Below are positions 22,340-47,605 of a DNA stretch of 51,062 bases, in pieces (position 1 is the stretch's first letter; the number at the start of each line of letters is the position of its first letter). The notes below the pieces were generated by a model that saw nothing but the letters and a program-made list of their open reading frames with translations, was not told where the DNA came from and made no database searches. The position numbers and the translations under genes are program-made. This DNA is from a virus, in IMG/VR virus record IMGVR_UViG_3300015192_000001, positions 1-51,062 of that record; one strand, given 5' to 3'.

Positions 22340-22570
22340 CTATTGAGGACCCGGAAGTCCGGGTGGGAGGCCGGCAGGAGCGCCAGGCGGTCCACCTGGG
22401 CCTGCTAGGGCAGCGAGGGCCGCAGCAATGGCTTGGCCGTTCTGGGGCACGTTGACAACGTGGCCGTCCGGACCGTGGGTATGCGGGGGGACTGGCATCG
22501 GTCCTTGGGCTGGACCTGGCATCGGACCGGGCATAGGTCCAGGAGGACCACCCGGAGGCTGGGCCATCAT
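22340..22570 (-). CDS. Pro/Gly-rich small protein, 76 aa. First ORF of the minus arm.
   Basis: ATG preceded by AAGGAG (aacaaggagctgcccATG). Low-complexity PGP repeats. Confidence 0.5.
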   Translation of the reverse strand: MMAQPPGGPPGPMPGPMPGPAQGPMPVPPHTHGPDGHVVNVPQNGQAIAAALAALAGPGGPPGAPAGLPPGLPGPQ

Positions 22571-22597
22571 GGGCAGCTCCTTGTTATCTCGAGGTCG

Positions 22598-22658
22598 CTA
22601 GTTAGCTAGATAGCAGTCGCAGCCGATCAAAGATCGGTACCAGCTAGCTAGCTAGCAG
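22598..22658. repeat. (CTAG)n-rich element: two AGCTAG-N-TAGCAGTC direct repeats flanking a CCGATC-AAA-GATCGG hairpin
   Basis: cgctagttagctagatagcagtcgcagCCGATCaaaGATCGGtaccagctagctagctagcagtc. The gctagctagctagc stretch is palindromic and places TAG in all three frames on both strands. Confidence 0.8.
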
Positions 22659-22706
22659 TCTCTACAAGTAAGGTCACTTGGACCCCCCTTTTATGCATAT
22701 GTCCCG

Positions 22707-22727
22707 CAAAGATTCTTCAAATCTTTG
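22707..22727. promoter_or_regulatory. Perfect 8-bp inverted repeat, CAAAGATT-cttca-AATCTTTG. Operator-like, and overlaps a TTGACA box.
   Basis: Read directly. The 3' half overlaps the TTGACA at 22725..22730. Confidence 0.6.
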
Positions 22728-22753
22728 ACAATCTACCCGATCTGTGCTTCTAT
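22725..22753 (+). promoter_or_regulatory. Candidate rightward promoter: TTGACA, 17-nt spacer, TTCTAT
   Basis: Perfect -35 box and 17-nt spacer, but a weak -10. Confidence 0.35.
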
Positions 22754-23387
22754 GCATGTCCGCATCCCGCGAATGACCGGCCCGTCCCGTATCTTTCGCG
22801 CCCTCGAGATGGGACAGGTTTCCCGGCCGGTATGCATAGTCCCCCGGTGCGCTTGTATCTGTCCCGTATGCATAGCCCAGGCGGGCGTGGGTGATCTTGG
22901 CGGGTAAATAGGTACGTGTAGTGTGCTAGCCGCCCCTAGTGTCGCAGGTTTCTTGGCTCGACCGGGGGTGTGTGTGCTGGCTGAGGAGCAGGCTGGCACC
23001 TACCCGTCCTGGGCACTGTAGCTCCGACAATACACACACCTGACCACACCGGCCCACCTCAGCCTCACACAGGCTGCCTGACCTTTGTCCTCATGACGCC
23101 ACTGGTTGCGGCATCCTGCTTCGGCTTCGGAGAGTCACTCGAGGTGTATATGGCAATCAGGTCCTCGCGTTCCCCCGCGGTCATGACGAGGTTTCTGGTC
23201 GAACAAACTATGTGATTCTGGCGATGACCTGCTCGTCGCCTGCGGGCTCCTCGCTTCACGATAACGGCGGGGGCTTTGCCCCCTACCCCAGCATGACTGT
23301 TCAAGCCACGTTGCAAGCCTCCACGCGGGGTTCACCTGAATATGCCCCTTCGCCCCCATCGAGGGGGCTCAGGGGAACAACACAAAG

Positions 23388-23407
23388 AAATCGCGCTGCG
23401 ATTTTTT
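23388..23407 (+). terminator. Intrinsic-terminator-like hairpin: AAATCGC-gct-GCGATTT followed by TTT
   Basis: 7-bp stem, 3-nt loop and a T-run, inside the ORF-poor control region. Confidence 0.45.
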
Positions 23408-23832
23408 GCGCTCCATAGGTTAACCTCGGGGCCGCTCGCTACGCGGGCTGCTGGCTAAAGCCAGCCCTTCGGGGCTTCGCCAGCCCGCTGGGCTCACTAG
23501 TTCACCGGTCAAGCACTCAGGTCGCCACTCGGCCACAAAGTGGCAGCAAGTTGCTTGAGCGTCATGTCGCTTCGCTCCACGGCGTCTCGGCTCGGGATGA
23601 CCCCCGCACACCTCATGACGATTCAGCTATGGGGCCAGCCCTCTAGCCGAGCCACCTTGTGCGCCCAACTTCCTACCGCTTTGTAACCTCGCCGTCGACC
23701 TGAGAACTTGACCTGGCCATGCAGCCAGCGCAAGCGCTGTCTTCTGGCCTGCCCTTCCCCTTCGTTGCGTCTAGCATATGGGTTCAAAGAATCCATGTGG
23801 GGGCTTCGCCCCCACCGCGAAGGAGAACGACC

Positions 23833-24108
23833 GTGGACGAGTACATCGAGCTGACCCCAGCAGTCATCGACCTCATGGAGGCTGGCGACTTCGCGGCCAT
23901 CGACGCCATGTTCGACAACACGCCTACCACACCCGGGGGCCTCAGCGACGCCTACCCAGACTACGAGCCGCTCGACAACCCGTTCTCACCAAAGGACGGG
24001 CACCGCTACATCCCCGACACCGGCTACGTACTCGACACCAGCGGCGAGGCCTGCGTCGTGTGCGCCGGATGGCCCGAAGAACACAAGCATTTCGCGGAGG
24101 TGAAGTAA
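23833..24108 (+). CDS. Hypothetical protein, 91 aa. First gene of the plus arm.
   Basis: GTG 7 nt after GAAGGAG. The track ORF 23719..24108 has an implausible N-terminal extension. Confidence 0.6.
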   Translation: MDEYIELTPAVIDLMEAGDFAAIDAMFDNTPTTPGGLSDAYPDYEPLDNPFSPKDGHRYIPDTGYVLDTSGEACVVCAGWPEEHKHFAEVK

Positions 24109-24530
24109 TGACGGTCCGCAACCTCAACAGCGAGAACGACGAGGTACTCACACTCCCCAACGACCTCAATGGCCTTGAGCGCATCTGCCGCAACTACCAC
24201 GCACGGCAGACAGTCGCCACCTACGAAATGACGCCAATCTTCACACCCGGTGATGGATGGCTCTGCGAATCCTGCGAAATCGAAACGTGGGTCCCCTACG
24301 GAGTCACACACACACATGGCCACAGAGCCATCTCCGTCCCCCCCACCGCCACAACTACTTTTCAGTACAAGTCGCACTCACTCGCGCGCTTCGGAGACAC
24401 CACAGCCTGCATTTCATGCGGCGCTGATGACAGATCCGACCTGTTCGAGTTCAAGCTCGATTGCGACACCCGCGCGGTTCGCATCTACCGATCGACCAAT
24501 GGCTCAGGACTCCGACGGGGTGTGGCGTGA
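24108..24530 (+). CDS. Hypothetical protein, 140 aa, with CxxC pairs
   Basis: TAATG coupling with GGAGGTGAAG as SD. Corresponds to the C-terminal part of track ORF 23778..24530. Confidence 0.65.
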   Translation: MTVRNLNSENDEVLTLPNDLNGLERICRNYHARQTVATYEMTPIFTPGDGWLCESCEIETWVPYGVTHTHGHRAISVPPTATTTFQYKSHSLARFGDTTACISCGADDRSDLFEFKLDCDTRAVRIYRSTNGSGLRRGVA

Positions 24531-24697
24531 TCGGCGCCGTTGACCCCACGGTGCGTGGATCACGGGTTCCGGCCGACTCCACCCCCGCACGGCTGCGCCC
24601 AGAGGGCGCACCGGCCGCAAGCGGCCTGCCGCACGTGGGCCCCGGAGCTCGGTCGGCGTCAGGAGAAGTAAGCAAGAAAGTGGAAGGAAACACTGAA

Positions 24698-26251
24698 ATG
24701 CCGCAAACAATCTCGTTTTGGTCGCGGGATGCCAAATGGTCTGGCCTTAGCAACTTCGCGCCAGTGACCATCGAGCACAACGGCACCATCTACCGCAGCC
24801 TTGAGCACGCCTACCTCGCATCACGCGTGGCAATCGAGCACGCTGCAGACATCGCAGCAGCGCCTACCGCACGCGATGCGAAGATCATGATGCGCGACCT
24901 ACCGCGCAACCCGCAGCCGCCGAACAAGATCACCACCATGAAAACACTGCTGCTCAAGAAATTCGCACTGGAGCCGTACCGCACGCTCCTGCTCAGCACA
25001 GGCGATACATACCTGTCCCACTACGCGCCATGGGACAGCTTCTGGGGCACAGGCAAAGATGGCAAAGGCGAGAACCGCCTCGGCCACATGCTCATGAACG
25101 TCAGGAGCGAGATCAATCCCGAAACAACCAAACCCACCGCATCAACAGATGCCACAACAAGTATTGCACTCGTAGGCTCGCGTGCGTTCGGAAAGGACCC
25201 GGCCCTGCTCAACGGCAAGGCAGCATGGACCCTCCTGACACGCATCTTCACAGGCATCGAGAAGCGGTACAGCCTCGTGAACATCGTCTCAGGTGGCGCC
25301 AACGGCGTCGACAAGATGGGCGTGTTCATGGCCAAGGATCGTGGACACACCACCACCGTCTTCCCAGCCGACTGGGACCGCCTCGGCAAGAGCGCTGGCT
25401 ACGCTCGCAACGTCACCATCGTCGAGAACTCAGACATGGTCGTAGCCATCATGGACCCCGGCTCCAAGGGCACCAGGCACACCGTCCACCTCGCTATGGA
25501 CGCACGGCTGCCCCTGCGGATCTTCAGCGCCATCGATGGCAGCGAGTACAAGTCGTGCCCCTGCGATGACAAGATCACGCACGACCGTATCAAGGCCGAG
25601 CAAACCTACCAGACAGTATCCATCGCAGGCACAGACGTCCTGATGGAAGGCGATGACGCCCGCATCCACCGCTACGACAAGCCGTACATCGATCCCGAGA
25701 CTGGTGACTTCATCGAGCCAGATGACAGCCTGCTCGGCATCGAGGTCGATGGCAACTGCCAGACCTGCGGCCGTGAGATGCCAGAGGGTGAGTGCGGCAA
25801 GTGCGCCACCGAGGTCTACGGCTTCCTCCCGGGGGACAACGCCCCAGTGGAAACGCCACAGGACCACCCAGACGTCACTGGCCACAACTACTTCATCAAG
25901 CCAGCCAAGGTGGAGTGGCAGCCAAACCCGTTCTCACGCGGCACGTTCTACAAGATCGTGAACGGTCACCGCATGTACACCGTAGACCAGGTGACCAAGG
26001 CTCGCTTCACCAAAGAGGACCTTGAGGCACAAACGATCCGCCTCAACGCTATCCCAGCAGGCGCCTTCAGCTTCGATGTCATCGCAAAGAACGCCATCAC
26101 GCGCAAGTTCCCAGTGATGCCGTTCGCACACGCAAGCCCGTTCGCCAAGGCGCAGCGCAACACGATCGTCAATCCGCCGCTTCCCCAGCTCCCGGCCACC
26201 ATGGTCGAGATGAGCAAGAAGATCGCTGACAACGCTCGGCTTTACCGCTAA
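24698..26251 (+). CDS. Three-part fusion protein, 517 aa: NADAR (YbiA-like), SLOG/DUF2493-like, and an unknown C-terminal domain with a zinc ribbon
   Basis: ATG after GGAAGGA. NADAR motifs: LSNFAPVTIEHNGTIYRSLEHAY and FWGTGKDGKGENRLGHMLM. SLOG/DUF2493 motifs: SGGANGVDKMG, FPADWDRLGKSAGYARN and GSKGTRHTV. CTD contains CQTCG...CGKC. Confidence 0.75.
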   Translation: MPQTISFWSRDAKWSGLSNFAPVTIEHNGTIYRSLEHAYLASRVAIEHAADIAAAPTARDAKIMMRDLPRNPQPPNKITTMKTLLLKKFALEPYRTLLLSTGDTYLSHYAPWDSFWGTGKDGKGENRLGHMLMNVRSEINPETTKPTASTDATTSIALVGSRAFGKDPALLNGKAAWTLLTRIFTGIEKRYSLVNIVSGGANGVDKMGVFMAKDRGHTTTVFPADWDRLGKSAGYARNVTIVENSDMVVAIMDPGSKGTRHTVHLAMDARLPLRIFSAIDGSEYKSCPCDDKITHDRIKAEQTYQTVSIAGTDVLMEGDDARIHRYDKPYIDPETGDFIEPDDSLLGIEVDGNCQTCGREMPEGECGKCATEVYGFLPGDNAPVETPQDHPDVTGHNYFIKPAKVEWQPNPFSRGTFYKIVNGHRMYTVDQVTKARFTKEDLEAQTIRLNAIPAGAFSFDVIAKNAITRKFPVMPFAHASPFAKAQRNTIVNPPLPQLPATMVEMSKKIADNARLYR

Positions 26252-26340
26252 TGAAGGTAGAAACCCTAGCAATCAGCACCTTCACAAGCGCGCTTCTCTG
26301 GATTGCCATGATCGCAATCCTTCGCACACTTGCGCAATAA
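26251..26340 (+). CDS. Small hydrophobic peptide, 29 aa (below the track cutoff)
   Basis: TAATG coupling to the NADAR-SLOG gene. Sequence MKVETLAISTFTSALLWIAMIAILRTLAQ*. Followed by an ACCGCC...GGCGGT hairpin. Confidence 0.4.
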   Translation: MKVETLAISTFTSALLWIAMIAILRTLAQ

Positions 26341-26379
26341 CAGGACCGCCCTGTCTCAGGCGGTAGAAAGAGGCCCAGC

Positions 26380-26760
26380 ATGTCCACCATCGCAAAGTTG
26401 ACCCTCATCGGTCACCTTGGTAACAACGCAGAGCTCCGCAACGTCGGCCCCGCAGACAACCTCCGCGCAGTCCTGAACTTCAGCGTCGCGACCCAGAACC
26501 GCAAGGACCAGCCCACGCTCTGGACACGGTGCTCCCTCTGGGGCAACCGCGCCGAATCCCTCGCGCAGTACATGACGAAGGGCACGCTCGTCATGGTCGA
26601 TGCCATCCCGCTGCCCCCGAAGGTCTTCCGTCGTGCCGACGGGACCTACGACACTTCCCTCGAGGCCATCGCGAACGACGTCGTACTGCTCAGCAGCCAG
26701 AACACCATCGAGCCCAGTGCTGCGGCAGTTGAGGTGACGGAGGTCGCGATCCCGTTCTAA
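26380..26760 (+). CDS. ssb: Single-stranded DNA-binding protein, 126 aa
   Basis: OB-fold SSB pattern (KLTLIGHLGNNAELR..., LWTRCSLWGNRAE, KGTLVMVDA) and a C-terminal ...EVAIPF tip. Confidence 0.8.
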   Translation: MSTIAKLTLIGHLGNNAELRNVGPADNLRAVLNFSVATQNRKDQPTLWTRCSLWGNRAESLAQYMTKGTLVMVDAIPLPPKVFRRADGTYDTSLEAIANDVVLLSSQNTIEPSAAAVEVTEVAIPF

Positions 26761-27888: not shown

Positions 27889-28155
27889 ATGACCTACGAC
27901 CCACTCACCGCAACAGGTTTCCAAGACTTCGCAACGAAGTACTACCAAGAACAAGACCACAGCTTCTCAAGGTCAGCGTACGACCTGTCACTCGCTAGTC
28001 GGATGTGCTCAGCGGCCGGATGGCACCCCGACGACTGCTATGTCTACGAAGACGACAAGTTCATCACCGTCGTGCAGATCGACAAGCAAGAAGTCCGCAT
28101 GCAGGCCAAAGACGTCCACAAGACACGACTTGACGACTTAGGAGTTGCACCATGA
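27889..28155 (+). CDS. Hypothetical protein, 88 aa
   Basis: ATG after TAGGAGAAC. Compact ORF. Confidence 0.65.
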   Translation: MTYDPLTATGFQDFATKYYQEQDHSFSRSAYDLSLASRMCSAAGWHPDDCYVYEDDKFITVVQIDKQEVRMQAKDVHKTRLDDLGVAP

Positions 28156-28394
28156 CCAGAACCGAGGTCCTGCTCAGGGATCGCAAACACGGCATCGCCT
28201 TCCTCAAGAACGACCAAGGAAAGATCATCCTCGCCTGCGCTTCCTACGGAAAGTCAAAGCTAATCGCTATCCCACTCAGCCAGGCAGAAGGACTAAGTCT
28301 GCTGAGTGCAGCACAGGCCACGTTCGTTCCCCCGCCCCACTACGAAAACTGGCTCGAAACGCTCATTCGGCTCATGAAAGGAGACAGGCAGTGA
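28152..28394 (+). CDS. Hypothetical protein, 80 aa
   Basis: ATGA coupling upstream and GTGA coupling downstream. Confidence 0.65.
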   Translation: MTRTEVLLRDRKHGIAFLKNDQGKIILACASYGKSKLIAIPLSQAEGLSLLSAAQATFVPPPHYENWLETLIRLMKGDRQ

Positions 28395-29491
28395 CACAAC
28401 TCGGCACCGATCCGGAGTTCTTCATCTTCGACAAGGATGACAAGCCGGTCCCCGCACACACCCTCGGATTCCCAACCAAAGAAAACAAGCTCAAATCAGA
28501 AGACATCGTTGGCGTCTTCGAGCAATACGCCACTCTCTTCCGAGACGGCTACGCGATCGAAGCCAACGTCACATACGCACCATCCTGCCGAGCCATGCTG
28601 GCAACACACATCCGATCAGCCGTACGCGCCATGCGTGCCAAGGTCGGACCGAACTATCACATCGGCACAGAAGCCGCCGTTCGCATCCGGCTTCGTACCC
28701 AGATGCGTGGAGCACCAGACGATGTCTCACACTTCGGATGCGAGCCATCATTCGACGGCTATCGCAATGGTGCAGCCAAGGTAGTCGACATCGACGCCTT
28801 CACCCACAGCTATCGCTATGCCGGAGGACACATGCACTTCGGCACTTTCAACAACAAGTCAGCACTCTACCGTCAAGCCGCAAAAGACGACAACTCCGAA
28901 GCATTGCAAGACCCGACCAACTTCCCACTCATGGCCAAGATCTTCGACCTACTCGTCGGACTGCCTCTCACCATCATCTATGACGACAGCAAGCAGTTTC
29001 TCCGTCGTCGTCACTACGGTCAGGCTGGCGAGTACCGACCACAGATCTACCCAGGCGAACGAGTGGGCTTCGAGTACCGCACACCCCCCCCGCAGCTATG
29101 GAACCACCACGCCATCGCCGGACTGTTCTTTGGCGTAGGCAAGTGGATCGTGAACAACTACGCCACCCTAGCCGAAGACTGGAACCCCAACATCGAGCAG
29201 GATCTGCAGCGTGCCATCAACCATGGCACCCGCGGACAGAACCTCCTGCAGAGCGTTCCAGGGTTCTATACCCCAGAGACAATCCTGTCTCTCAAGGGTG
29301 TCAAGGAAATCAAATCGCTCTTCCTTCCGGACTACACCGGCAGCACCGATTCGGGATGGATCGAGTTCGCCGAGCTCTGGGGCCTAAAGAAGACCATCCC
29401 GGAGCCCAACTTCAAGCGAAGCTACACCTCAGCACCATACGCACCCACCGCACGTCCCAAGTTCAGCTTCATTGCGGCCAAAGCCGCATGA
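28391..29491 (+). CDS. Carboxylate-amine (COOH-NH2) ligase, 366 aa, phage phiEco32-like type 2, in the GCS/GS-like superfamily
   Basis: GTG start (GTGA overlap, GGAGACAGG as SD). Motifs: LGTDPEFFIF, FGCEPSFDG, AGGHMHFG, GQAGEYRPQ and GFEYRTPP. The first about 80 aa of the track ORF overlap two other genes. Confidence 0.7.
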   Translation: MTQLGTDPEFFIFDKDDKPVPAHTLGFPTKENKLKSEDIVGVFEQYATLFRDGYAIEANVTYAPSCRAMLATHIRSAVRAMRAKVGPNYHIGTEAAVRIRLRTQMRGAPDDVSHFGCEPSFDGYRNGAAKVVDIDAFTHSYRYAGGHMHFGTFNNKSALYRQAAKDDNSEALQDPTNFPLMAKIFDLLVGLPLTIIYDDSKQFLRRRHYGQAGEYRPQIYPGERVGFEYRTPPPQLWNHHAIAGLFFGVGKWIVNNYATLAEDWNPNIEQDLQRAINHGTRGQNLLQSVPGFYTPETILSLKGVKEIKSLFLPDYTGSTDSGWIEFAELWGLKKTIPEPNFKRSYTSAPYAPTARPKFSFIAAKAA

Positions 29492-29646
29492 AACACTGGG
29501 GACTGATCCAATTCGAGATCTTCAACATCAGCTTCGGTCTTCTGTTCTACGGACACGGACAGCGACCGAAGGGCACGCCAGTCAGGAAGATCTGGATGTT
29601 CCATCCATTCTTCTATCGCTACCACCACTACTGCGACAACAGCTAG
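29488..29646 (+). CDS. Small aromatic-rich protein, 52 aa (below the track cutoff as its own gene)
   Basis: ATGA coupling to the ligase stop. Sequence MKHWGLIQFEIFNISFGLLFYGHGQRPKGTPVRKIWMFHPFFYRYHHYCDNS*. Confidence 0.45.
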   Translation: MKHWGLIQFEIFNISFGLLFYGHGQRPKGTPVRKIWMFHPFFYRYHHYCDNS

Positions 29647-29659
29647 AGAGGAAAAGAAC

Positions 29660-30130
29660 ATGGGTGTCATTCACAACCAGGGAATCGGACAAGCACTGGC
29701 ACAGTCAGCACCAGCTGGCTACTACATCGTGCCAGAATTCCAAGACAACAAAGCAACAGATCGATACTTCTTGAGAACCAAGAAGAACGGCGACAACTGG
29801 GCCACCTTCAAGGCAGAGACGCTACCAGGATGCTGCGGCGTCGCAGTTCTGTCACACGTCAACGTGTACTACTACGAAAAAGCTGCCGAGATCGCCAGAC
29901 GCAACAAGGTCATCGTCGATATGTTCGTTACTGCTGCTAAGAAGCGCGGTTACGGACTCGCGATGGCAACCCAGAAGGCCACGTCAGCGGCGCTCCCAGC
30001 GTACGACGCATGGGAACACGGACAGCCATTCAACAACGGCAAAACGGACAACGACGTTTTGCTTCTAAAGCTCGATCTCAAGCAGCCCAAGAGAACACCT
30101 GTCAAATACATCGAAACAGGCGGCGAGTAG
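29660..30130 (+). CDS. Hypothetical protein, 156 aa, CC-motif family, with a Pup-type C-terminus ...KYIETGGE
   Basis: ATG after GAGAGGAAAAG. C-terminal codons read directly: cct gtc aaa tac atc gaa aca ggc ggc gag tag. Confidence 0.65.
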   Translation: MGVIHNQGIGQALAQSAPAGYYIVPEFQDNKATDRYFLRTKKNGDNWATFKAETLPGCCGVAVLSHVNVYYYEKAAEIARRNKVIVDMFVTAAKKRGYGLAMATQKATSAALPAYDAWEHGQPFNNGKTDNDVLLLKLDLKQPKRTPVKYIETGGE

Positions 30131-30352
30131 CAATAAGGGGTGAGGCATAGGCCTCACGTGCTGGGGTAGAGGACGGGACCCCTAGCGATGTAGCTCTGGC
30201 AGAAAACACATCCAGTGTTCCAGAGCAAGGGTGCGGTTAAATCGTCTTGCGGTCTCAAAGTGCATTTGGGTTACCCCCAAACAGGCGTCGAGACATATTA
30301 AGGCGCAAGGGACAACCGTAAATCGGTGGAACCAGAGGCCACCAGCCCACTA

Positions 30353-30483
30353 GCTTGTCGGTAGTTCAACGAGATGCCTGCCCAAACGGCTAACGGTTCC
30401 ATCCCGGAAACCCAGAGGGTCAGTACTAATCGGATGCCAGAACACCCGCAAGGACATGGAGGTCGGAATCCTCCCCGACAAGC
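30353..30483 (+). ncRNA. Candidate structured RNA with a tRNA-like acceptor/T-arm module (not a canonical tRNA)
   Basis: 9-bp terminal helix GCTTGTCGG/CCGACAAGC. It abuts a GGAGG-TCGGAAT-CCTCC hairpin exactly as the acceptor and T stems do in a tRNA. UA follows the 5' strand. The interior is about 40 nt too long and no D-arm is found. Confidence 0.3.
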
Positions 30484-30557
30484 TTCTCATCTGCCGAGAC
30501 ATGGCAGAGGACTGACGGGCCTTACCCGTCAACCACTTCGCATACCGAAGGAGCACC

Positions 30558-32225
30558 ATGGCTCTGCATTTCGAGCACCAACCTCCCACCATCATGACCC
30601 TCAAAAAGCCCAAAAAGACCAGCAAAAAGCGTACTTGGGCCATTCCGATCATGTTCGGCAGCACACCCATGCTGCGTCGCTGTCCCAACTGCGACAGAAC
30701 CAGATCCACCACCCACGTCGTCGGATTCTGCGCTGAATGCGAAAGCTGCGTTGCCTGCGGCGCTGCGCCATGGATAGATCGCGACACACGACTCTGCGCC
30801 AACTGCGTATGCCAAACATGTGGCGGCACTAATGCGCCCATGGGTCGTGATGAGGATGGCGACACTGCATGCGGCACCTGTCGCAAGGTCGTCATCTGCA
30901 CGATCTGCTCACGCAACTTTGCTAACTGCCTGAGGAAAGGCGAACAAACACCAACCCAGTGCTACGAGTGCGCCGGACGATCCAAGATGCGCTGCTACTT
31001 CTGCAACGGCAAAGCCAGCAAGATCATGGGAAACGATTCACGAGCCAACCGCAAGTACTACCTCGTCTGCGCCATCTGTCACAACACCTTCTGCTGCTGG
31101 CGCAAAGACTGCATCCCAACCAAACAGTGCGGCGGATGCACCGACAGGCAGCACGAGCAAGAGCAAGCAGACACCAATCCCACACCTCGTTGGAACAACC
31201 CGTTCGGCAACTGGGTCAACAATCCGATCAAGTTCTGGGATGCCACACCAATCACTAGCCGCAAGATCAATCGATCACCCCGAATGCTCGGCATCGAAAT
31301 CGAATGCGCAGGCGCCACAAACGTCACACTCAAAACCAAAGCAGAACTGTACCGAGTGCTCAAAAAGTGGGGCGCCAGCATGGTGTACGACGGCTCACTG
31401 CGCAGCGGCGGATTCGAGATCACCACATCCCCCGCTGCAGGCGACGTCTTCCTCAAGCAGATCGACGAGATCACCGACGCCCTGCGAGCCGCAGGCGCAT
31501 TTGTCGACGAGCAATGCGGTCTCCACGTACACATCGACGCACGAGACCACCACTACGCCGACATCCGCAAGCTCGTGCGCTACTACGCCTTCCTCGAGCC
31601 AGCACTCATCCGTACCCAGCCATTCGATCGCATCCTTCGCCCCAACCCGAACAACGGCAAGTACTACTGCCTACCATGCGGAGAGAAGTACCTAACAGGC
31701 CTCGGTGACACAAGCGCTGAGACCGTCTCCAAGATGTACACCGACATCACTCGAGAGAAACTTCTGAGCAACATCTATGGCACAGACACATGGCGCCCAC
31801 CCAGGAGGGAGCACTACACCCAGGCCAAGTACCACGCATTCAACTTCCACTCATGGTTCTACAAGAACCGACGCACAGTCGAATCCAGGATACACGCAGG
31901 CACAATCGTCCCCAGAAAGATCAAAGACTGGGGCATGCTCTGGGCCAGCATCGTCGATGAGGCCTACCGGATGACAGACAAGGTCATCCCGGTCCCCGGA
32001 CCAGTCGACGACAGCATCGCGCAGCTCAAGCGCGTAGCACCAACCCCACGTATCAAGACCTACATCCAGACACGACTGGATACCTTCCGCAAGAAGTACG
32101 ACGACTACTACGCCACGCAACCTGCAACTTCCATACCCAACAACCCATTCTTCGAAGAAACATTCGAAGCAGAAATTCAAGACCCACCTGAAGACCACGA
32201 CAACTACGAAGAAGAGGACTTTTAA
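30558..32225 (+). CDS. Amidoligase_2-family (GS-like) ligase, 555 aa, with a long N-terminal multi-CxxC zinc-ribbon array
   Basis: ATG after GAAGGAG. 26 Cys, including 11 CxxC pairs, in residues 42-194. Ligase motifs: MLGIEIECAG, YDGSLRSGGFEITTSP, CGLHVHIDA. Acidic tail ...EDHDNYEEEDF. Confidence 0.7.
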   Translation: MALHFEHQPPTIMTLKKPKKTSKKRTWAIPIMFGSTPMLRRCPNCDRTRSTTHVVGFCAECESCVACGAAPWIDRDTRLCANCVCQTCGGTNAPMGRDEDGDTACGTCRKVVICTICSRNFANCLRKGEQTPTQCYECAGRSKMRCYFCNGKASKIMGNDSRANRKYYLVCAICHNTFCCWRKDCIPTKQCGGCTDRQHEQEQADTNPTPRWNNPFGNWVNNPIKFWDATPITSRKINRSPRMLGIEIECAGATNVTLKTKAELYRVLKKWGASMVYDGSLRSGGFEITTSPAAGDVFLKQIDEITDALRAAGAFVDEQCGLHVHIDARDHHYADIRKLVRYYAFLEPALIRTQPFDRILRPNPNNGKYYCLPCGEKYLTGLGDTSAETVSKMYTDITREKLLSNIYGTDTWRPPRREHYTQAKYHAFNFHSWFYKNRRTVESRIHAGTIVPRKIKDWGMLWASIVDEAYRMTDKVIPVPGPVDDSIAQLKRVAPTPRIKTYIQTRLDTFRKKYDDYYATQPATSIPNNPFFEETFEAEIQDPPEDHDNYEEEDF

Positions 32226-32227
32226 AC

Positions 32228-33535
32228 ATGTGCGGACAATTCGGCGTGCAATGGCGAGAGCGACCAGGCGGAGCCAACATCCCGCTCTTCGCCGTACTTG
32301 AGGTCCTCATGGACGACCGCGGTGGTCACTCATGGGGATTCTGGGCCGACGGGGTAGTCCGCAAGGGACTGGGCCGCATCACAGAATCGATCCCAGCCAG
32401 AACATTGGGCGGAGTCAAAACACTCATCGCCCACACCCGCCTCGCCACCACAGGCAAGATCTGCGAGAGCAACTCCCACCCTTTTGAGATGGGAAAGATC
32501 GTCGGCACACACAACGGAATGATCTACAACCACGAGGATCTCGCACGGCACTACGACCGCAAGTTCGAAGTCGATTCCATGCACATCTTCGCCCATCTTG
32601 ACGAAGGCCAAGACCTTCAGGAGCTGCGAGGCTATGGTTCAGCAGTCTGGCTACACACCGACGACCTGAACACCATCAACTTCGTACGCTGGAACAGCGG
32701 AGACCTAGCCATCGCCGAGATCTACAGCAAAGACAAGAAGCTGCTGGGCACTGCATGGGCCTCAACTCCAGAAGCACTCGTCCCAGCCATCGAAACCACA
32801 GGACTCGTCGATCGCCTCATCAAGGTCGATGAAGAGCGCCATTACTACACCAAAAACGCCGAAGTCTTCGCAGAGAACGAAAAGAGCATGAAGTTCGGCT
32901 TCGGTTCAAAGGGCGCATCCACCTTCAGCTCTCACGCAGACAAGATCGGTGGCGAATGGGTCAAAAACGTCTGGACTGCCTATGAAAATGGAGTCCTGCC
33001 AGCCCCCAAGCCGGTGCAGATCTACTCGGGCTTCAGACACAAGCAGAAGCCAACACCCATCGAAGTCCGAGACACACTCGCAAAGCAGGGCCTCAAAGCG
33101 ATCCAGCGGCCGGGTGGCGTCACCATCAAGAACAAATCCCAGTTCGAAGAATGGCCCAAAGACACCCTCACACAAAGTCGCAAGTGCATGAACTGCGATC
33201 TTGCCAACATGAAGACAGTCCGGCACCCCGAGATCGGCGTAGCGCTCTGCTACGACTGCACCAAAGTCACCGATTCCTACGATGACGCTGGACTCCCAAT
33301 CATCGTGCCCAACACCACAGAACACGGCATCGCCCTAGTCGCCAACCTACAAGATGTCGTCACCCTCCAAGATGCCATCAAATACGAAGGCATCGACGAA
33401 GACACACTAGACCCAGACGAAGTCGCCCTACTGGAGTGGATGCGCGAAGGACGCCGTCCCGAAAGCGGCACGCTCTACATCCCAAACAACGAAGAGATCG
33501 AGTTCCCACCCCGAGATTGGGTCGGCATGATCTAG
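32228..33535 (+). CDS. Class II (Ntn-type) glutamine amidotransferase-like protein, 435 aa, with a C-terminal zinc ribbon
   Basis: Met-Cys start (MCGQFG). Motifs: IAHTRLATTG, NSHPF, GTHNGMIYNHEDL. C-terminus contains CMNCD...CYDC. Confidence 0.7.
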   Translation: MCGQFGVQWRERPGGANIPLFAVLEVLMDDRGGHSWGFWADGVVRKGLGRITESIPARTLGGVKTLIAHTRLATTGKICESNSHPFEMGKIVGTHNGMIYNHEDLARHYDRKFEVDSMHIFAHLDEGQDLQELRGYGSAVWLHTDDLNTINFVRWNSGDLAIAEIYSKDKKLLGTAWASTPEALVPAIETTGLVDRLIKVDEERHYYTKNAEVFAENEKSMKFGFGSKGASTFSSHADKIGGEWVKNVWTAYENGVLPAPKPVQIYSGFRHKQKPTPIEVRDTLAKQGLKAIQRPGGVTIKNKSQFEEWPKDTLTQSRKCMNCDLANMKTVRHPEIGVALCYDCTKVTDSYDDAGLPIIVPNTTEHGIALVANLQDVVTLQDAIKYEGIDEDTLDPDEVALLEWMREGRRPESGTLYIPNNEEIEFPPRDWVGMI

Positions 33536-33772
33536 ATGTATCAGATCATTGAGATCCGCATCGCCGTTGACGGAACTGAAGACCGTATCCGAGACCGGAT
33601 TCAGAACAAAGGACAAGAGATCACCCGAAGCCTAGAGACCAATCTCGTAGGCCACGGATTCATTCCACTGCGTCTCATGGGCGCCAACAGCATCATCCCC
33701 AGAATCCGTATCAAGAGTACACACCAAGAACCAGAGCAACTCAGCATCGGACTGAGAGGAGACGAACCATGA
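33536..33772 (+). CDS. Hypothetical protein, 78 aa
   Basis: TAGATG junction upstream and ATGA downstream. Confidence 0.6.
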   Translation: MYQIIEIRIAVDGTEDRIRDRIQNKGQEITRSLETNLVGHGFIPLRLMGANSIIPRIRIKSTHQEPEQLSIGLRGDEP

Positions 33773-34227
33773 GATGCGACAAACGCGTCGGCAGCCTCCG
33801 TTGTCCACAAACAGCAATGGCCGGATTCGTACGGTGCTCGGCACACGTCGCACAGTACCAAAACGAAGGCAGCAACATCGAAGCCCTGCGTGCCACACCA
33901 ACACAAGCCGCAACCCTAGCAACCAACACCTGGACCATGAACCCAACAATGCACTTCGACACCACACAAGCCTTCCATGACATGGATGCAGCCACTGCCG
34001 CTGTAATAGCTGGCTTGGGCCTCCCACCCACCGAAGCACCAGCCAAGAAGGAAGTCACCAAGGTCGTCGACCCAGAGTGTCTGGCACGAGTCATCGCACA
34101 GCTCGATATGCCGAAAGACGACAAGCTCAAGCTCGCCATGGAATTCGCAGAAGCCCTCGTCGAAATGAAGCCAATCAAGTTCAACCGAGACAGCTTCATC
34201 CAACACATCCAGGAGAAGATCGCATGA
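33769..34227 (+). CDS. Hypothetical protein, 152 aa, with a Cys/His-rich N-terminus
   Basis: ATGA coupling at both ends. N-terminus is MRCDKRVGSLRCPQTAMAGFVRCSAH. Confidence 0.6.
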   Translation: MRCDKRVGSLRCPQTAMAGFVRCSAHVAQYQNEGSNIEALRATPTQAATLATNTWTMNPTMHFDTTQAFHDMDAATAAVIAGLGLPPTEAPAKKEVTKVVDPECLARVIAQLDMPKDDKLKLAMEFAEALVEMKPIKFNRDSFIQHIQEKIA

Positions 34228-34337
34228 ACGAGCTCACCGCAGAAGACATCGAACTGCTAGATGGCATCGACCCCGACGATGACGACGACGCCATCTTTCT
34301 CGAACAGTTCTACCTCAAGGGAGGCACCGGAGAGTGA
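34224..34337 (+). CDS. Pup-like small acidic peptide, 37 aa, ending KGGTGE
   Basis: ATG at 34224 after AGGAGAAG, with ATGA overlap. Codons read directly give MNELTAEDIELLDGIDPDDDDDAIFLEQFYLKGGTGE*. Its stop overlaps the next GTG (GTGA). Confidence 0.6.
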   Translation: MNELTAEDIELLDGIDPDDDDDAIFLEQFYLKGGTGE

Positions 34338-35086
34338 AGACGCTCGTCAAGCGGCGGGTGCTCGTCGCCGTAGCCAAGGTAGCGGCGACTCGCCCCGCGG
34401 TTGAGATCCAGCCATATGACGGACCGGCCGCCAACTACATCCAGTTGACGGGCGTCCCCCTCACCATGGCCATTCTCAACGATGAGTACAAGGAGCTCAT
34501 GTCGCCAGTCATGTGCAAGGACTACATCACCGATGCCTTCTGGTCCGAACACAGCAAGAAGCCAATTTCCATCTACGGCTTCAACTGGACATCGGGAACA
34601 ATAGACCCCAGCAAGGTCGTCTATCGCATCGGACTCAAGTTCGGCAACGACGACGATGCCCAAAAGACAACCAACGTCATCGACCTCATCAACCTTTGGG
34701 ACAAAGCACTTGGCTTCAAACCAAGCCAGCTCCTAAAGACCAACGACATCAAGAACCGTGTCCTTGAAGTCGATCGCGCATGGACCGAGCAGCCAATCCG
34801 CATCAGCCTTCTCACCCTCATGCTTCGCATGGGCACCGCCTACACCCCCGGAGAGGGGCTCGAGGCATTCCTCAACAACACCAAGACCAACATAAACACC
34901 GGGAAGAAAGGCCTACGCGCACTCATCCACAGTGGTGACGGCATGCATGTCGCCCAGGCCCAGAACCTCATCCTGAAGATCTACAAGGAGGGAAAGTTCC
35001 CCGCGCAGACCTACGCACAATACAAAAGCCACAGCGAAATCCACAACCGAAGCGGCATCGTCTCAATGGCAGGGAGCAGTAAGTGA
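34334..35086 (+). CDS. Hypothetical protein, 250 aa, lying between the Pup-like peptide gene and the ATP-grasp gene
   Basis: GTG start. Its SD AAGGGAGG is encoded by the KGG codons of the upstream peptide. No motif recognised. Confidence 0.65.
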   Translation: MKTLVKRRVLVAVAKVAATRPAVEIQPYDGPAANYIQLTGVPLTMAILNDEYKELMSPVMCKDYITDAFWSEHSKKPISIYGFNWTSGTIDPSKVVYRIGLKFGNDDDAQKTTNVIDLINLWDKALGFKPSQLLKTNDIKNRVLEVDRAWTEQPIRISLLTLMLRMGTAYTPGEGLEAFLNNTKTNINTGKKGLRALIHSGDGMHVAQAQNLILKIYKEGKFPAQTYAQYKSHSEIHNRSGIVSMAGSSK

Positions 35087-35838
35087 TCGACCTCGTCGTA
35101 GCCTCAGCAGCCAAGACCACCGGACGCTACCTCAGAACAGCCCTCTCTACACTCAATGTAGGGGTCGGTGCAAGCACCAAGCGTGTGAGCTACGGCGTAC
35201 CGCTGCATGTTCCTCATGGCTCCTCGGCCCTCAACGCCAACGCAGGTCGGCTCGACAAGTTCGAGCAGATGAAGAAGCTTAACTCTGCGGGAATCACCGT
35301 GCCCCTGTTCTGGCTTCCAGGACAGACGCCGTCTAAGTTCCCGCTTCTCGCGAGAAAGAGGCATCACAAGGGAGGTACCGACATCATGCCCGTCTTCATG
35401 GCAGAGGAGATGTCATGGCGCGTCCTCGCAGGTGCTGAATTCTTCGTGGAGTACATCCCGTGGCAGGCGGAGTATCGCACATGGATATTCCGCTCAGCTC
35501 ACCTGGGGACCGATCGCAAAGTCCTGACGAACCCGAGTCAGTACAAGAAGATCGGATGCAACGCAAAGAACGGGTTCACGTTCCAGACCGTCCACCAAGA
35601 CGATGTCCCAAGGGCAGCCGTCGAAGCCGCCATGAGGTCAATCCACACACTTGACCTTGACTTCGGCGCAGTAGACATTCTTCTTGGCAAGGACAGTCGA
35701 TACTACGTGCTTGAGGTAAACACGGCCCCCGGGGTCGAGAGCGCAGAGCGCAGGCTACTCCGCTCCCTCGCACAGAAGATCGCCAACTGGAACGCCAACC
35801 CGGTCGAACGTCGCAAAACCTACACACCGACCATCTAA
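35083..35838 (+). CDS. ATP-grasp (RimK-like) amide ligase, 251 aa
   Basis: Motifs: DKFEQMKKLNSAGITVP, RKRHHKGGTD, EYRTWIF and LDLDFGAVDILLGKDSRYYVLEVNTAPG. Confidence 0.7.
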   Translation: MIDLVVASAAKTTGRYLRTALSTLNVGVGASTKRVSYGVPLHVPHGSSALNANAGRLDKFEQMKKLNSAGITVPLFWLPGQTPSKFPLLARKRHHKGGTDIMPVFMAEEMSWRVLAGAEFFVEYIPWQAEYRTWIFRSAHLGTDRKVLTNPSQYKKIGCNAKNGFTFQTVHQDDVPRAAVEAAMRSIHTLDLDFGAVDILLGKDSRYYVLEVNTAPGVESAERRLLRSLAQKIANWNANPVERRKTYTPTI

Positions 35839-36504: not shown

Positions 36505-36577
36505 ACGGGGCAATCGTTCAGCGGCAGGACCCTGGGTTGTGAACCCGGCAAGGCAGGTCCAACTCCTGCGTGCCCCT
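36505..36577 (+). promoter_or_regulatory. Structured 5' leader candidate: nested helices with a GNRA-capped hairpin, ending 5 nt before an SD
   Basis: Outer helix ACGGGGCA/TGCCCCT. Inner helix GGACC/GGTCC. Hairpin CTGGGTT-GTGA-AACCCGG. Then cagAAAGGActtccaATG. Confidence 0.35.
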
Positions 36578-36592
36578 CAGAAAGGACTTCCA

Positions 36593-36739
36593 ATGTCTTA
36601 CCTCACCGGTCTTTCCGATCGCCTAATGGACATCGCCTACCACACCAAGAACCAGTACGAAAGCGAGACAATCCAAGAGGCAGCAGAAGCAATCAAGAAA
36701 CTCGACCCAATAAAGCCAAAGGGCTTCCACAAACAGTGA
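36593..36739 (+). CDS. Small protein, 48 aa
   Basis: ATG after AAAGGA. The track ORF 36539..36739 has an unlikely upstream extension. Confidence 0.5.
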   Translation: MSYLTGLSDRLMDIAYHTKNQYESETIQEAAEAIKKLDPIKPKGFHKQ

Positions 36740-37158
36740 GCAAGATCTACGTCATCGGATCACTCCGCAATCCTGAGATCCCCACAGTCGCCAAAACCTT
36801 GAGAGAGGCAGGCTACGAAGTCTTCGATGACTGGTACGCCGCAGGCCCGATCGCTGACGACTCGTGGCAGGCCTACGAAAAGGCCAGGGGACGCAACTAC
36901 CAGGAAGCCCTGCAAGGCTATGCAGCCAATCACGTCTACGCATTCGACTACAGCCACCTTGTCACGTCAGACATAGCCGTGCTGGTCACCCCAGCAGGCA
37001 AGTCAGGACATCTCGAATTCGGATACTTCAAGGGACTCGGGCGACCCGGCTACATCCTGCTAGACAAGGAACCAGATCGCTGGGACGTCATGTACAAATT
37101 CGCAACCGGCGTCGTCTTCAGTATGGACGAGCTGATGCAGAAACTAGGAAATCAGTAG
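36736..37158 (+). CDS. Nucleoside 2-deoxyribosyltransferase-like protein, 140 aa
   Basis: GTGA coupling. KIYVIGSL N-terminal strand. Motif SDIAVLVTPAGKSGHLEFGYFKGLGRPGYIL. Confidence 0.55.
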   Translation: MSKIYVIGSLRNPEIPTVAKTLREAGYEVFDDWYAAGPIADDSWQAYEKARGRNYQEALQGYAANHVYAFDYSHLVTSDIAVLVTPAGKSGHLEFGYFKGLGRPGYILLDKEPDRWDVMYKFATGVVFSMDELMQKLGNQ

Positions 37159-39082: not shown

Positions 39083-39409
39083 TTATCCGACGATGTCAGT
39101 GTCGTACTGTGCTGCACGTGGATCACCATACTCAGCAAAGGCCTTTCGTACTGGACGTTCTGGCTCGGCTTGAAGTGTCTTGTACGTTGTTGACGCGATC
39201 TTCTTAGTGGCCAGCCTTCGTGCAAAAACTGCGACTGCGGCACCAATGATGTATTGCAGGTCGATGTGGAACGCCGACAGGAGTACTGCCAGACCCACCA
39301 CGCCAACGCCGGCCGCGATCTCCGTGCCCCAAAAGTCCCACAGGTAGACCTTCCAGAAGGCGTCCTTGACTCGGGCTGTGCTTACTCGCTTGGTAGGACT
39401 ATCGGGCAT
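39083..39409 (-). CDS. Membrane protein, 108 aa. Last gene of the minus arm.
   Basis: Two hydrophobic segments (IAAGVGVVGLAVLLSAF, IIGAAVAVFA). Confidence 0.6.
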   Translation of the reverse strand: MPDSPTKRVSTARVKDAFWKVYLWDFWGTEIAAGVGVVGLAVLLSAFHIDLQYIIGAAVAVFARRLATKKIASTTYKTLQAEPERPVRKAFAEYGDPRAAQYDTDIVG

Positions 39410-39641
39410 TCTGTTTCCCCTCGAGAATGAGATTGATCAACACGGCCTCGAACGGATAGGACTTCGTCTCCCCCGAGGTTGCTGCTGTGGCCTCCCACTC
39501 GGCAGCGGTCACCGTGGCTCTCTTACCATCGCCCTCGAGCTCCGACAGGGCTGTTGCGGCGTGCATGGCCACGGCCTCGCGGTATCGCATGACTCGCAAT
39601 GCCGCCCATTCAAGGAACCGCTCGTACGGCTCGTTAAGCAT
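39399..39641 (-). CDS. Hypothetical protein, 80 aa (C-terminal part of track ORF 39399..39938)
   Basis: ATG at 39641, 9 nt after GAGGA. The upstream 99 codons of the track ORF are Ser/Thr/Pro-rich and overlap the HNH frame. Confidence 0.5.
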   Translation of the reverse strand: MLNEPYERFLEWAALRVMRYREAVAMHAATALSELEGDGKRATVTAAEWEATAATSGETKSYPFEAVLINLILEGKQNAR

Positions 39642-39654
39642 GTCGATGAGATCC

Positions 39655-39864
39655 TCATACCCCGACAACTCGGATGCGGTGTCGGGCGTTGTGGTGGACG
39701 AGGCAGAGGGCTTCCAAGTTACTGTCGATGTCCCCACCACCGCGTGAACGGAAGGTTCGATGGTGGATGGCTGAGGCGGGGGCTCCGCAAAGAACGGTTG
39801 AACCGTCCCCGTAAGAAACGGGAAACTCGCACTCTCCGTGCTCTCGCCGGTATCGTTCGACCAC
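39655..39864 (-). CDS. HNH endonuclease, 69 aa from the GTG. The frame is open and basic further upstream.
   Basis: Motifs: ECEF...LCG and IHHRTFRSRGGGDIDSNLEALCLVHHNARH. Confidence 0.65.
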   Translation of the reverse strand: MVERYRREHGECEFPVSYGDGSTVLCGAPASAIHHRTFRSRGGGDIDSNLEALCLVHHNARHRIRVVGV

Positions 39865-39934
39865 TGGTTTGTCAACGATTCGGCTGGGGCGTTTTCTGTG
39901 CTTCTTGCCGCTCTTCGGCTGGGGATTGAAGGTG

Positions 39935-40099
39935 TCATTTGGCGTACTTCTTCTCCTGCGCTTCTGCTCGTGGGGTGATAAACGGCTCAGTGAACTTCAC
40001 CTTGTCCGAGCAGAACGGGCATAGGTCTTCTTCGTCTGCAAGATGAATCGCCTGATTGCGATCAAGGATGATGTCGAAGTGCGTAACTGTTGCTGGCAT
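39935..40099 (-). CDS. Small protein, 54 aa (below the track cutoff)
   Basis: TAATG coupling upstream and ATGA downstream. Sequence MPATVTHFDIILDRNQAIHLADEEDLCPFCSDKVKFTEPFITPRAEAQEKKYAK*. Confidence 0.45.
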   Translation of the reverse strand: MPATVTHFDIILDRNQAIHLADEEDLCPFCSDKVKFTEPFITPRAEAQEKKYAK

Positions 40100-40461
40100 T
40101 AGGCGTCTACTCCCAGCTTGTGCAGTACGTCCTTCGCAGCTTCCTCGGGGAGCGACTCGATGATGAGTGCGAGGGAGATGGCGACATAGTTCAGGGCGTC
40201 CGCGGCGGTATCTAGGAGGGACTCATCTTTGACTTGTCCCGTTCCCCCCTGCTCGGCAAGGCGGATGAGTCGGGAGAACTTGTCCATGAGCCGGACCATG
40301 GCCCCGCGCCACGCTTCGACTCCGACGACTGCGGACTTGTGGAAGTTGGCAAAGGGGACTTCGGTCCCGGAGTAGTCGTTGCGCTTCGGGCCCATGATAT
40401 CGATCGCCTTCTTGAAGAGGTTCTCGTGAAGGGCTCGAGCCTGTTTCGGTGTAAGATGCAA
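40099..40461 (-). CDS. DUF1599-like or MazG-like all-alpha NTP-pyrophosphohydrolase-fold protein, 120 aa from the TTG
   Basis: TTG 6 nt after GGAAAGGA. Motifs: GPKRNDYSG, FANF, MVRLMDKFSRLIRL and ESLLDTAADALNYVAISLAL. The N-terminus of track ORF 40099..40644 looks non-coding. Confidence 0.5.
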   Translation of the reverse strand: MHLTPKQARALHENLFKKAIDIMGPKRNDYSGTEVPFANFHKSAVVGVEAWRGAMVRLMDKFSRLIRLAEQGGTGQVKDESLLDTAADALNYVAISLALIIESLPEEAAKDVLHKLGVDA

Positions 40462-40597
40462 ATTCGGTCCTTTCCGCAGGGTAGATACGGGACGTGGGTC
40501 TGGTAGATTCCGGGCCGTAGCGGGCCTCTCAGAGCCTCCCAGGGCCATTGGGTAATGGTCCCTGGGGTTCATGGGGCCTACGCCGACGAGCCCCCGC

Positions 40598-43343: not shown

Positions 43344-43344
43344 A

Positions 43345-43823: not shown

Positions 43824-43824
43824 G

Positions 43825-46012: not shown

Positions 46013-46019
46013 ATCTCTC

Positions 46020-47589: not shown

Positions 47590-47605
47590 TGCCGCATCGT
47601 CCTTG

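Follow-up and report, generated by a model that had tools for sequence, protein, structure and literature searches.

A phage NADAR–SLOG fusion with an orphan zinc-ribbon region, encoded beside a single-stranded DNA-binding protein: a possible tethered DNA de-ADP-ribosylase

The virus-derived stretch of DNA analysed here, IMG/VR record IMGVR_UViG_3300015192_000001 (positions 1 to 51,062, i.e., the full 51,062 nucleotides (nt), hereafter the window), encodes on its + strand a protein of 517 amino acids (aa) in which a NADAR domain, a SLOG domain and an orphan C-terminal region with a predicted zinc ribbon follow one another. We tentatively read this protein as a tethered, AdfN-like DNA de-ADP-ribosylase equipped with a SLOG/zinc module that is linked to a single-stranded DNA-binding protein (SSB), a reading that its sequence features make possible while falling somewhat short of an even chance. 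The gene probably represents a variation on an anti-defence enzyme that is already known, and not a novel type of system. New are the three-part architecture, the orphan domain with its predicted zinc sites and the observation that the SLOG domain together with the orphan region (SLOG-X), rather than the NADAR domain, constitutes the conserved SSB-linked core.

An initial annotation, drawn up from the letters of the window alone, had already proposed the 517-aa gene and its layout of NADAR, SLOG and C-terminal parts, and these proposals stood up. The gene is backed by the open frame, a Shine-Dalgarno sequence, the alignment of homologs and the GC content by codon position, and the layout by Pfam, PHROG, ortholog and fold matches. 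The identity of each part was likewise confirmed, for the NADAR domain through a Pfam check above the curated cut-off and the match to YbiA, for the DUF2493-type SLOG domain through PHROG, the Pfam result of an ortholog and fold matches (the window protein's own Pfam score being below the cut-off), and for the C-terminal domain without assignable family, which measures 234 aa, through an invariant ribbon and empty searches of Pfam, PHROG, the Protein Data Bank (PDB) and the GenBank phages.

The NADAR domain is the best supported of the three. PF08719 covers aa 7–139 (profile positions 2–162 of 163) with an E-value of 2e-18 and 67.6 bits against a cut-off of 35.1, phrog_1017 matches at 8e-28, and, among solved structures, the sequence search retrieved E. 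coli YbiA alone (2b3w; E = 9e-12). Active-site roles described in the literature (PMC11543638) were transferred to the window protein through the alignment with YbiA and through two others that comprise NADARs from phages and metagenomes. The catalytic Glu, which corresponds to E88 in E. coli C7, E43 in PnNADAR and E36 in T4 (PMC11543638), is kept as E36 in the context S-L-E-H and is invariant in both NADAR alignments. H37 and the GENRLG motif are kept as well, as are D113 and W116, and H108, D113 and W116 are spaced as in YbiA. Position 108, the equivalent of E125 in PnNADAR, is occupied by His; DarT1-linked NADARs carry Asp at this position and phage NADARs His (PMC11543638). The closest NADAR relative, P0008 (41% identity), has the whole motif HYAPWDSFWGTGK in common with the window protein, and the motif H-Y-A-P-W-D-S-F-W-G is likewise common to both. 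The near relatives P0009–P0011 additionally match PF08010, the T4 gp30.3 family, for which a Pfam scan of the window protein returned no match. Because the active-site residues are mostly kept, the NADAR domain is probably active, with an Arg at position 43 as a caveat that is taken up below.

The central domain falls into the viral YspA/DUF2493 clade of SLOG domains. Several family profiles score below their cut-offs in the window protein itself, namely PF10686 (YAcAr, formerly DUF2493; 24.4 bits versus 28.2), LDcluster4 (20.1 bits) and TIGR00732 (14.7 versus 191). Despite these low scores, the assignment is made on the basis of phrog_289, which matches aa 144–304 at 8e-21, of the ortholog P0002, which reaches 35.0 bits with YAcAr and thereby passes the cut-off (it also passes that of DprA), of a tblastn match with 38.5% identity over 120 aa to the DUF2493 part of ICP1 HelB, and of fold matches. 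The latter come from a full-length AlphaFold model built on 3 sequences, of which the SLOG part alone is usable (predicted local distance difference test, pLDDT, of 70–87 against a mean of 44.7). Foldseek aligned it to the solved structures of DprA (3uqz, 4ljk), the ThsA SLOG (7uxs, 8bto), ShosA and DNPH1, with the Rossmann domain by which DprA binds single-stranded DNA (ssDNA) as the nearest fold, and, among viral models, to dozens of YspA/DUF2493 proteins with E-values as low as 1e-12. Two Gly-rich loops, SGGANGVD (198–205) and SKGTRHT (256–262), are invariant across the family and fit the GGxxGxD and GTxxT/E loops that follow strands 2 and 4 in SLOG domains. In the more remote orthologs P0003 (aa 70–120) and L003 (translation), the SLOG domain contains an insertion of ~40–50 aa with Cys and His residues (FCLHN...C-D-K-x-x-H), which is present neither in the window protein nor in P0002 and may form an extra metal site.

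The orphan C-terminal region can be divided into an acidic zinc part (aa 284–376, isoelectric point (pI) 4.3) and a basic tail (aa 377–517, pI 9.7). Its sequence predicts two zinc sites, one putatively formed by Cys287, Cys289, His295 and His324 (the last being invariant in 5/5 family members) and one corresponding to a C4 ribbon. Further features common to the five sequences are CPC(D/E)D...H-x-R...YQT, the extended ribbon CxxCGRE-x5-CxxCAxExYG, PD(V/I)TGxN and VNG. The region appears to stand apart from all described families: Pfam searches with all five members at E-values up to 10 gave only noise, no match was obtained in a profile search of the PDB, in PHROG or by tblastn in the GenBank phages, and an AlphaFold model of the region (4 sequences, pLDDT 45.4) yielded a Foldseek result that was noise. 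Searched exhaustively with HMMER, 1.84 billion representative proteins yielded the window protein, P0002, P0003 and the fragment P0005, next to P0006 and P0007, which are spurious repeat proteins and were rejected as members. A profile search of a 5.8-billion-protein database and scans of the IMG/VR and GTDB genomes added no further members, and a single partial locus, L003, came from a scan of metagenomes. Besides the window protein, the carriers of this region in ~15 billion proteins and three contig collections are thus four only, and an HMM search of all open reading frames (ORFs) of the window and the fetched loci detected no paralogs. A possible HNH nuclease, based on the CxxC pairs and a DH/N/H pattern, was considered and rejected, because the family does not keep His390 and because both CxxC pairs lie ahead of the motif.

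A comparison with the relatives separates the NADAR domain from the remainder of the protein. It is absent from all four of them (P0002, P0003, P0005 and L003), P0005 being a fragment without its N-terminus. The products of P0003 and L003 begin at the SLOG domain, and so almost certainly does that of P0002, where GGGGG is found 6 nt before the ATG of MNIAIVG; the orthologs open with M-N/R-I-A-I-V-G exactly at S-I-A-L-V-G of the window protein. A NADAR domain encoded as a separate upstream gene was looked for in the relatives and none was found. The NADAR domain and a Thr/Ser/Pro-rich linker are joined at the N-terminus in the window lineage only. Since this domain has no counterpart in the relatives, the conserved and selected unit is SLOG-X beside the SSB. 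The linker comprises no in-frame start codon, so that the assembled sequence encodes a true NADAR–SLOG fusion, and this fusion is not a fresh insertion, given that the GC content at third codon positions (GC3) of the NADAR part (0.76) is like that of the rest of the gene. As the NADAR fusion is known from a single contig, an assembly error remains formally possible.

The SSB gene is located 3' of SLOG-X in all three loci with downstream DNA. Synteny, at 35–68% protein identity, links the window phage to the 45.5-kb contig underlying L001: both carry, in this order, a small protein rich in Cys, SLOG-X, SSB, a handful of short ORFs, a COOH-NH2 ligase, an Amidoligase_2, a class-II GATase, an unknown protein and an ATP-grasp protein, and the trio of Cys-rich protein, SLOG-X and SSB recurs in L002. 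No Pfam or PHROG family matches the 140-aa Cys-rich protein of the window. The C-terminus of the window SSB (...EVAIPF) resembles the partner-recruiting tip of bacterial SSBs. A tip resembling an SSB tail (...DPDEIPF) also ends a Cys-rich ORF of 113 aa that lies 5' of the SLOG-X ortholog in L003 (144-485, +) and has no detectable homology to the upstream gene of the window.

Beyond these loci, no NADAR–SLOG fusion was found among the GenBank phages, where no match covers more than 31% of the query; Variovorax phage V45v66, the best fusion candidate, was rejected because its SLOG stands alone. A different YAcAr–SLOG fusion, P0004, is the second gene of an arm diverging from the terminase arm in an unrelated phage. 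The NADAR relative P0008 is found on contig L008 (1240–5120), where a DUF488-N3a/DUF4326-like gene, the NADAR gene, four small ORFs and, ~2 kb from the NADAR gene, a DprA-family gene (PF02481, 150 bits) are present. This corresponds to an ADP-ribose-processing type of neighbourhood, of the kind predicted in a survey of viruses (Iyer et al. 2022; PMC9503650), and indicates that NADAR and DprA/SLOG-type proteins recur together. Similarly, a related NADAR is encoded between helicase and primase/helicase genes in a Klebsiella Jedunavirus.

All of the four NADAR subtypes tested in association with E. coli, YbiA and T4 gp30.3 among them, hydrolyse ADP-ribosylated guanine on ssDNA in vitro and leave ADP-ribosylated thymine intact (PMC11125620). 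In vivo, DarTG1 is overcome by T4 gp30.3 (AdfN) as well as by two further, unrelated NADARs of phages (PMC11825919). Analogously, the NADAR domain of the window protein would act as an AdfN/DarG1-like glycohydrolase that cuts ADP-ribose off guanine in phage DNA, and possibly off cytosine (PMC12945103), after a host transferase of DarT1 type would have placed it there. The SLOG and zinc/orphan module would supply the targeting by binding ssDNA or an SSB-coated replication intermediate; alternatively, SLOG-X may sense the ADP-ribose adduct. This interpretation relies on the NADAR score above the Pfam cut-off in combination with E36, H37, D113, W116, GENRLG and His108, and on the PF08010 matches of near relatives together with the published activity of tested and phage NADARs. 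The targeting role is suggested by the constant pairing of SLOG-X with SSB, by DprA as the nearest fold and by the fusion of the same SLOG clade to a superfamily 1B (SF1B) helicase in ICP1 HelB, as well as by the DprA-family gene close to P0008 and the NADAR between replication genes in the Klebsiella phage. T4 AdfN is fully active in T-even infections only, for which its authors suggest an additional phage protein, and in the window protein this function could come from a covalently joined partner.

Several points weigh against a tethered de-ADP-ribosylase. The phosphate-binding Lys seven residues after the catalytic Glu (K95 in C7, K50 in Pn and K43 in T4; PMC11543638) is replaced by Arg43, while all 12 other aligned NADARs have Lys. 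In the E. coli C7 NADAR, the corresponding K95R substitution retained hydrolysis in vitro and abolished the rescue of cells from DarT1 (PMC11543638). There is no NADAR-bearing ortholog, so conservation within the domain cannot be compared, and the DprA profile PF02481 reaches 20.6 in the window protein, below its cut-off of 29.6. The structure models of the NADAR domain and the C-terminal region are unusable. Moreover, the authors of the viral NADAR/SLOG survey favour soluble ADP-ribose derivatives as the main substrates (PMC9503650). The initial annotation had seen in the protein a candidate counter-defence enzyme that removes ADP-ribosylation from DNA or protein, or else destroys or sequesters NAD-derived immune signals. 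Of this proposal, the role of the NADAR domain is plausible on the published evidence (PMC11125620, PMC11825919), but this domain is not part of the conserved protein and bears Arg43 in place of Lys; no result obtained here discriminates DNA-linked from small-molecule substrates. The idea of counter-defence matches published biology and is therefore less novel.

One alternative, which we regard as somewhat unlikely, is that the NADAR and SLOG domains bind and cleave soluble NAD-derived signals or toxins (cyclic ADP-ribose (cADPR) isomers, ADPr-1''P, His-ADPR) and thus blunt Thoeris-like defences or those based on TIR, sirtuin or ADP-ribosyltransferase (ART) proteins, with the C-terminal domain contributing an additional catalytic step or oligomerisation. 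The matches of the SLOG model include the ThsA SLOG in complex with 3'cADPR (7uxs), the nucleotide-binding loops of the domain are invariant in the family, and a DUF488/DUF4326-like gene neighbours the nearest NADAR relative. In addition, fusions and co-occurrence have been taken to argue that viral NADAR, SLOG, Macro and DUF4326 domains act mainly on ADP-ribose derivatives of low molecular weight (PMC9503650). Nonetheless, no phage SLOG or NADAR was shown to act on such signals in the literature found, and the demonstrated NADAR activities all concern base-linked ADP-ribose or riboflavin intermediates. The SSB pairing and the helicase fusions of the same SLOG clade rather point to nucleic acid, and in relatives that do without a NADAR domain a separate role would have to be found for the core protein. 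These relatives, which function in its absence, speak for a second alternative, in which SLOG-X is an SSB-partnered accessory factor in replication or recombination, e.g., a DprA-like mediator or loader, to which the NADAR domain has been added as a functionally unrelated passenger. The gene order of Cys-rich protein, SLOG-X and SSB, kept in three diverged phages, the rank of DprA as top solved-structure match and the IPF tip of partner-binding type at the end of the SSB are in line with such a factor. We consider it decidedly unlikely all the same: the SAM and winged-helix domains of DprA are missing, the Pfam DprA score is below the cut-off, no recombinase gene was recognised among the window ORFs scanned, and stable fusions usually link related functions, with NADAR and DprA/SLOG genes co-occurring elsewhere (L008; PMC9503650).

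The genes downstream offer a further explanation, in which the SLOG and NADAR domains are N-glycosidases (like LOG and YbiA) acting on a nucleotide-derived intermediate or by-product of the pathway encoded by the cluster of amidoligase, GATase, ATP-grasp and deoxyribosyltransferase genes. The gene shares its strand and arm with the ligase, amidoligase, GATase, ATP-grasp and deoxyribosyltransferase-like genes, the order of SLOG-X, ligase, amidoligase, GATase and ATP-grasp is kept in L001, YbiA, the best solved-structure match by sequence, is an N-glycosidase of riboflavin intermediates, and DNPH1 is among the SLOG fold matches. Such an enzyme of nucleotide metabolism is nonetheless improbable, as the SLOG is of the YspA/DprA and not the LOG type, TIGR02464 scores 67.3 in the window protein and stays below its cut-off of 73.7, the cluster is set apart from the SSB gene by ~1.7 kb with unrelated ORFs, and no SLOG gene is annotated in the one further phage with an amidoligase that was inspected. 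The remaining probability goes to an inactive NADAR domain or something unforeseen.

The tethered de-ADP-ribosylase can be extended to a more far-reaching and unlikely proposal, in which the SLOG and two-zinc orphan module would be a hitherto unrecognised, SSB-partnered factor that recognises damaged or ADP-ribosylated ssDNA at phage replication intermediates, and the capture of a NADAR domain would have turned it into a self-targeting repair enzyme. If true, the orphan region would represent a new lesion- or ssDNA-recognition fold and the fusion would show the type of partner that a stand-alone AdfN such as T4 gp30.3 needs in cells. The activity of phage NADARs against DarTG1 is established, and what is unexplained is why T4 AdfN and others work only in their own phage. 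A NADAR domain joined to an SSB-adjacent protein offers a concrete candidate for the way in which these enzymes are brought to the DNA on which they act. It also provides a functional hint for the large family of viral YspA/DUF2493 SLOGs and flags a very rare, predicted zinc-binding domain without detectable relatives outside its five-member family. The reach is small, with five known family members and a likeliest biochemical activity that has already been described.

Table 1. Coordinates of the gene, its domains and motifs and the adjacent features in the window.
Feature	Position	Strand	Details and basis
NADAR–SLOG–orphan domain gene	24698..26251	+	517 aa, stop included; ORF list, Pfam/PHROG matches, orthologs P0002, P0003, P0005 and L003
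Shine-Dalgarno-like GGAAGGA	24682..24688	+	9 nt 5' of ATG 24698; read from the sequence
NADAR domain	24716..25114	+	aa 7–139; PF08719, YbiA 2b3w alignment; positions E36, R43, H108, D113, W116
Thr/Ser/Pro-rich linker	25124..25156	+	aa 143–153; read from the sequence
SLOG domain, viral YspA/DUF2493 type	25157..25546	+	aa ~154–283; phrog_289, Pfam result of ortholog P0002, Foldseek, invariant columns
Orphan C-terminal region	25547..26248	+	aa 284–517, 234 aa; five-member family
C287-P-C289-D-D...H295 motif	25556..25582	+	C287/C289 kept in 4/4 sequences covering the stretch; H295 invariant in 5/5
Predicted zinc ribbon CxxCGRE-x5-CxxC	25757..25804	+	C354, C357, C366, C369; invariant in 5/5 family members
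Cys-rich upstream gene	24108..24530	+	140 aa; homologs directly 5' of the SLOG gene in L002 (39% identity) and L001 (35%)
SSB gene	26380..26760	+	phrog_44, 9e-16; follows the ortholog in L001 and L002
29-aa hydrophobic ORF	26251..26340	+	overlaps the stop (TAATG); GRAVY (grand average of hydropathy) 1.24; probably not a gene
GC-rich hairpin ACCGCCC-TGTCTC-AGGCGGT	26345..26364		intergenic, ahead of the SSB gene; + strand lacks a T-run

The open frame on the + strand extends over 24461..26251, within which ATG 24698 is the best start. It is preferred because of the spacing to the Shine-Dalgarno sequence, the point at which the alignment of NADAR homologs to the 517-aa product begins (residue 3–7) and the non-coding-like GC content of the upstream extension. 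The automatic caller's product, P0001, has 574 aa, starts at GTG 24527 and adds 171 nt upstream of ATG 24698. GC contents at the three codon positions of this extension are 0.77/0.65/0.65, compared to 0.55–0.59/0.42–0.50/0.76–0.80 in the gene body, a coding pattern that is common to the neighbouring genes. The longer starts (574 and 596 aa) were rejected on this basis.

The gene is the third ORF of a + arm that starts at ~23.7 kb, after a gene-poor divergent region of 1.1 kb facing the structural arm. Early expression and a 29-aa hydrophobic peptide coupled to the stop codon, both put forward in the initial annotation, did not find support. A scan for sigma-70-type promoters detected none, and early timing is a reasonable guess from the position in the divergent + arm. 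The 29-aa ORF probably arose by chance: it is not preceded by a Shine-Dalgarno sequence, its GC3 is 0.59 versus 0.70–0.86 in the neighbouring genes, and neither L001 nor L002 contains an equivalent, the distance to SSB in L002 being 20 nt. The hairpin between the gene and SSB was flagged by a terminator scan on the - strand only.

Other parts of the window were recorded as well. The gene-poor divergent region between the structural arm and the + arm (~1.1 kb, 22570-23700) contains four TATGCAT(A) motifs near 22691, 22752, 22831 and 22867, two of which are exact 15-mers (CSGTATGCATAGYCC) at a distance of 36 nt (0.28 matches expected by chance), and, at 23388-23404, a hairpin that is bidirectional and has a T-run. 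Such elements could serve as operators or promoters, or mark where a small transcript ends. Next to this region, a Pro/Gly-rich ORF of 76 aa (PGPMPGPMPGP...; 22340-22570, -) coincides with tandem-like repeats of CTGGCATCGGTCC at 22492-22540. The + arm continues with a phiEco32-like set of peptide/amide ligases (28145-35838, +), which comprises a COOH-NH2 ligase (PF14395), an Amidoligase_2 (PF12224), a class-II GATase (PF13522), an unknown protein and a RimK-like ATP-grasp protein, and keeps its order in L001 (13820-20141). The same arm carries a tRNA-His (GTG) at 36507-36578 (+), followed by a nucleoside deoxyribosyltransferase-like gene (36736-37158, +) with a phrog_12607 match of 5e-20 and no Pfam match. 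A third arm (39400-50600, -) encodes a ClpP-like protease (42098-42772), a DnaB helicase (43825-45081), a primase (44903-46063), a tyrosine integrase (46295-47275), a Cas4-like nuclease (47606-48472) and an Rv2525c-like glycoside hydrolase (49216-50055). The tyrosine integrase gene suggests that the phage is temperate. No DNA polymerase was recognised among the window ORFs scanned.

Compared to known systems, the likeness to ThsA, the Thoeris effector, is limited to the fold match with its SLOG sensor domain (7uxs, 8bto): the identity of 14–16% is too low for a reliable residue comparison, the window protein has no Sir2 or other effector domain, and ThsA is a host defence protein whereas the window protein is encoded by a phage. 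DprA provides the best solved match for the Rossmann/SLOG fold (3uqz, 4ljk), and the window gene adjoins the gene of an ssDNA-binding protein; it differs in that the window protein lacks SAM and winged-helix domains, is flanked by the NADAR and orphan domains instead, shows an identity of ~20–23% and scores far below the PF02481 and TIGR00732 cut-offs. By sequence and fold, the domain belongs to the same clade as the viral YspA/DUF2493 SLOGs (PF10686, phrog_289), such as the C-terminus of ICP1 HelB and gp61 of mycobacteriophage D29, for which no demonstrated function was found in the literature. Such SLOGs are often fused to other domains (PMC9503650). Their partners are helicase, HNH, HTH, exonuclease and guanylate kinase domains, whereas those in the window protein are NADAR and the orphan domain with its predicted zinc sites. 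The same survey lists viral SLOGs fused to NADAR, Macro, DUF4326, HTH, HNH, exonuclease, superfamily 1 (SF1) helicase and guanylate kinase, and proposes NADAR/SLOG fusions and neighbourhoods in viruses as modules for processing or sensing ADP-ribose (PMC9503650). With these NADAR/SLOG/Macro/DUF4326 modules, the window protein has NADAR and SLOG on one polypeptide in common, and the neighbourhood of P0008 combines DUF488/DUF4326-like, NADAR and DprA genes; the modules are a computational prediction, and the available part of the survey mentions neither the C-terminal domain nor the pairing of SLOG-X with SSB. The DarT1-linked NADARs have a basic N-terminal extension that the window protein lacks. 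AdfN (T4 gp30.3, AdfN-Bas32, AdfN-Bas60) and DarG1 are single domains of ~150–230 aa, whereas the window NADAR is fused to a SLOG domain and a 234-aa orphan region, has Arg43 where they have Lys, and gives no PF08010 match. They nevertheless share the NADAR fold, the catalytic Glu and the Asp and Trp contacts to phosphate and ribose, and with AdfN in particular the window protein has in common that it is encoded by a phage, carries His at the position of E125 in PnNADAR and counts matches to the gp30.3 Pfam family among its nearest relatives.

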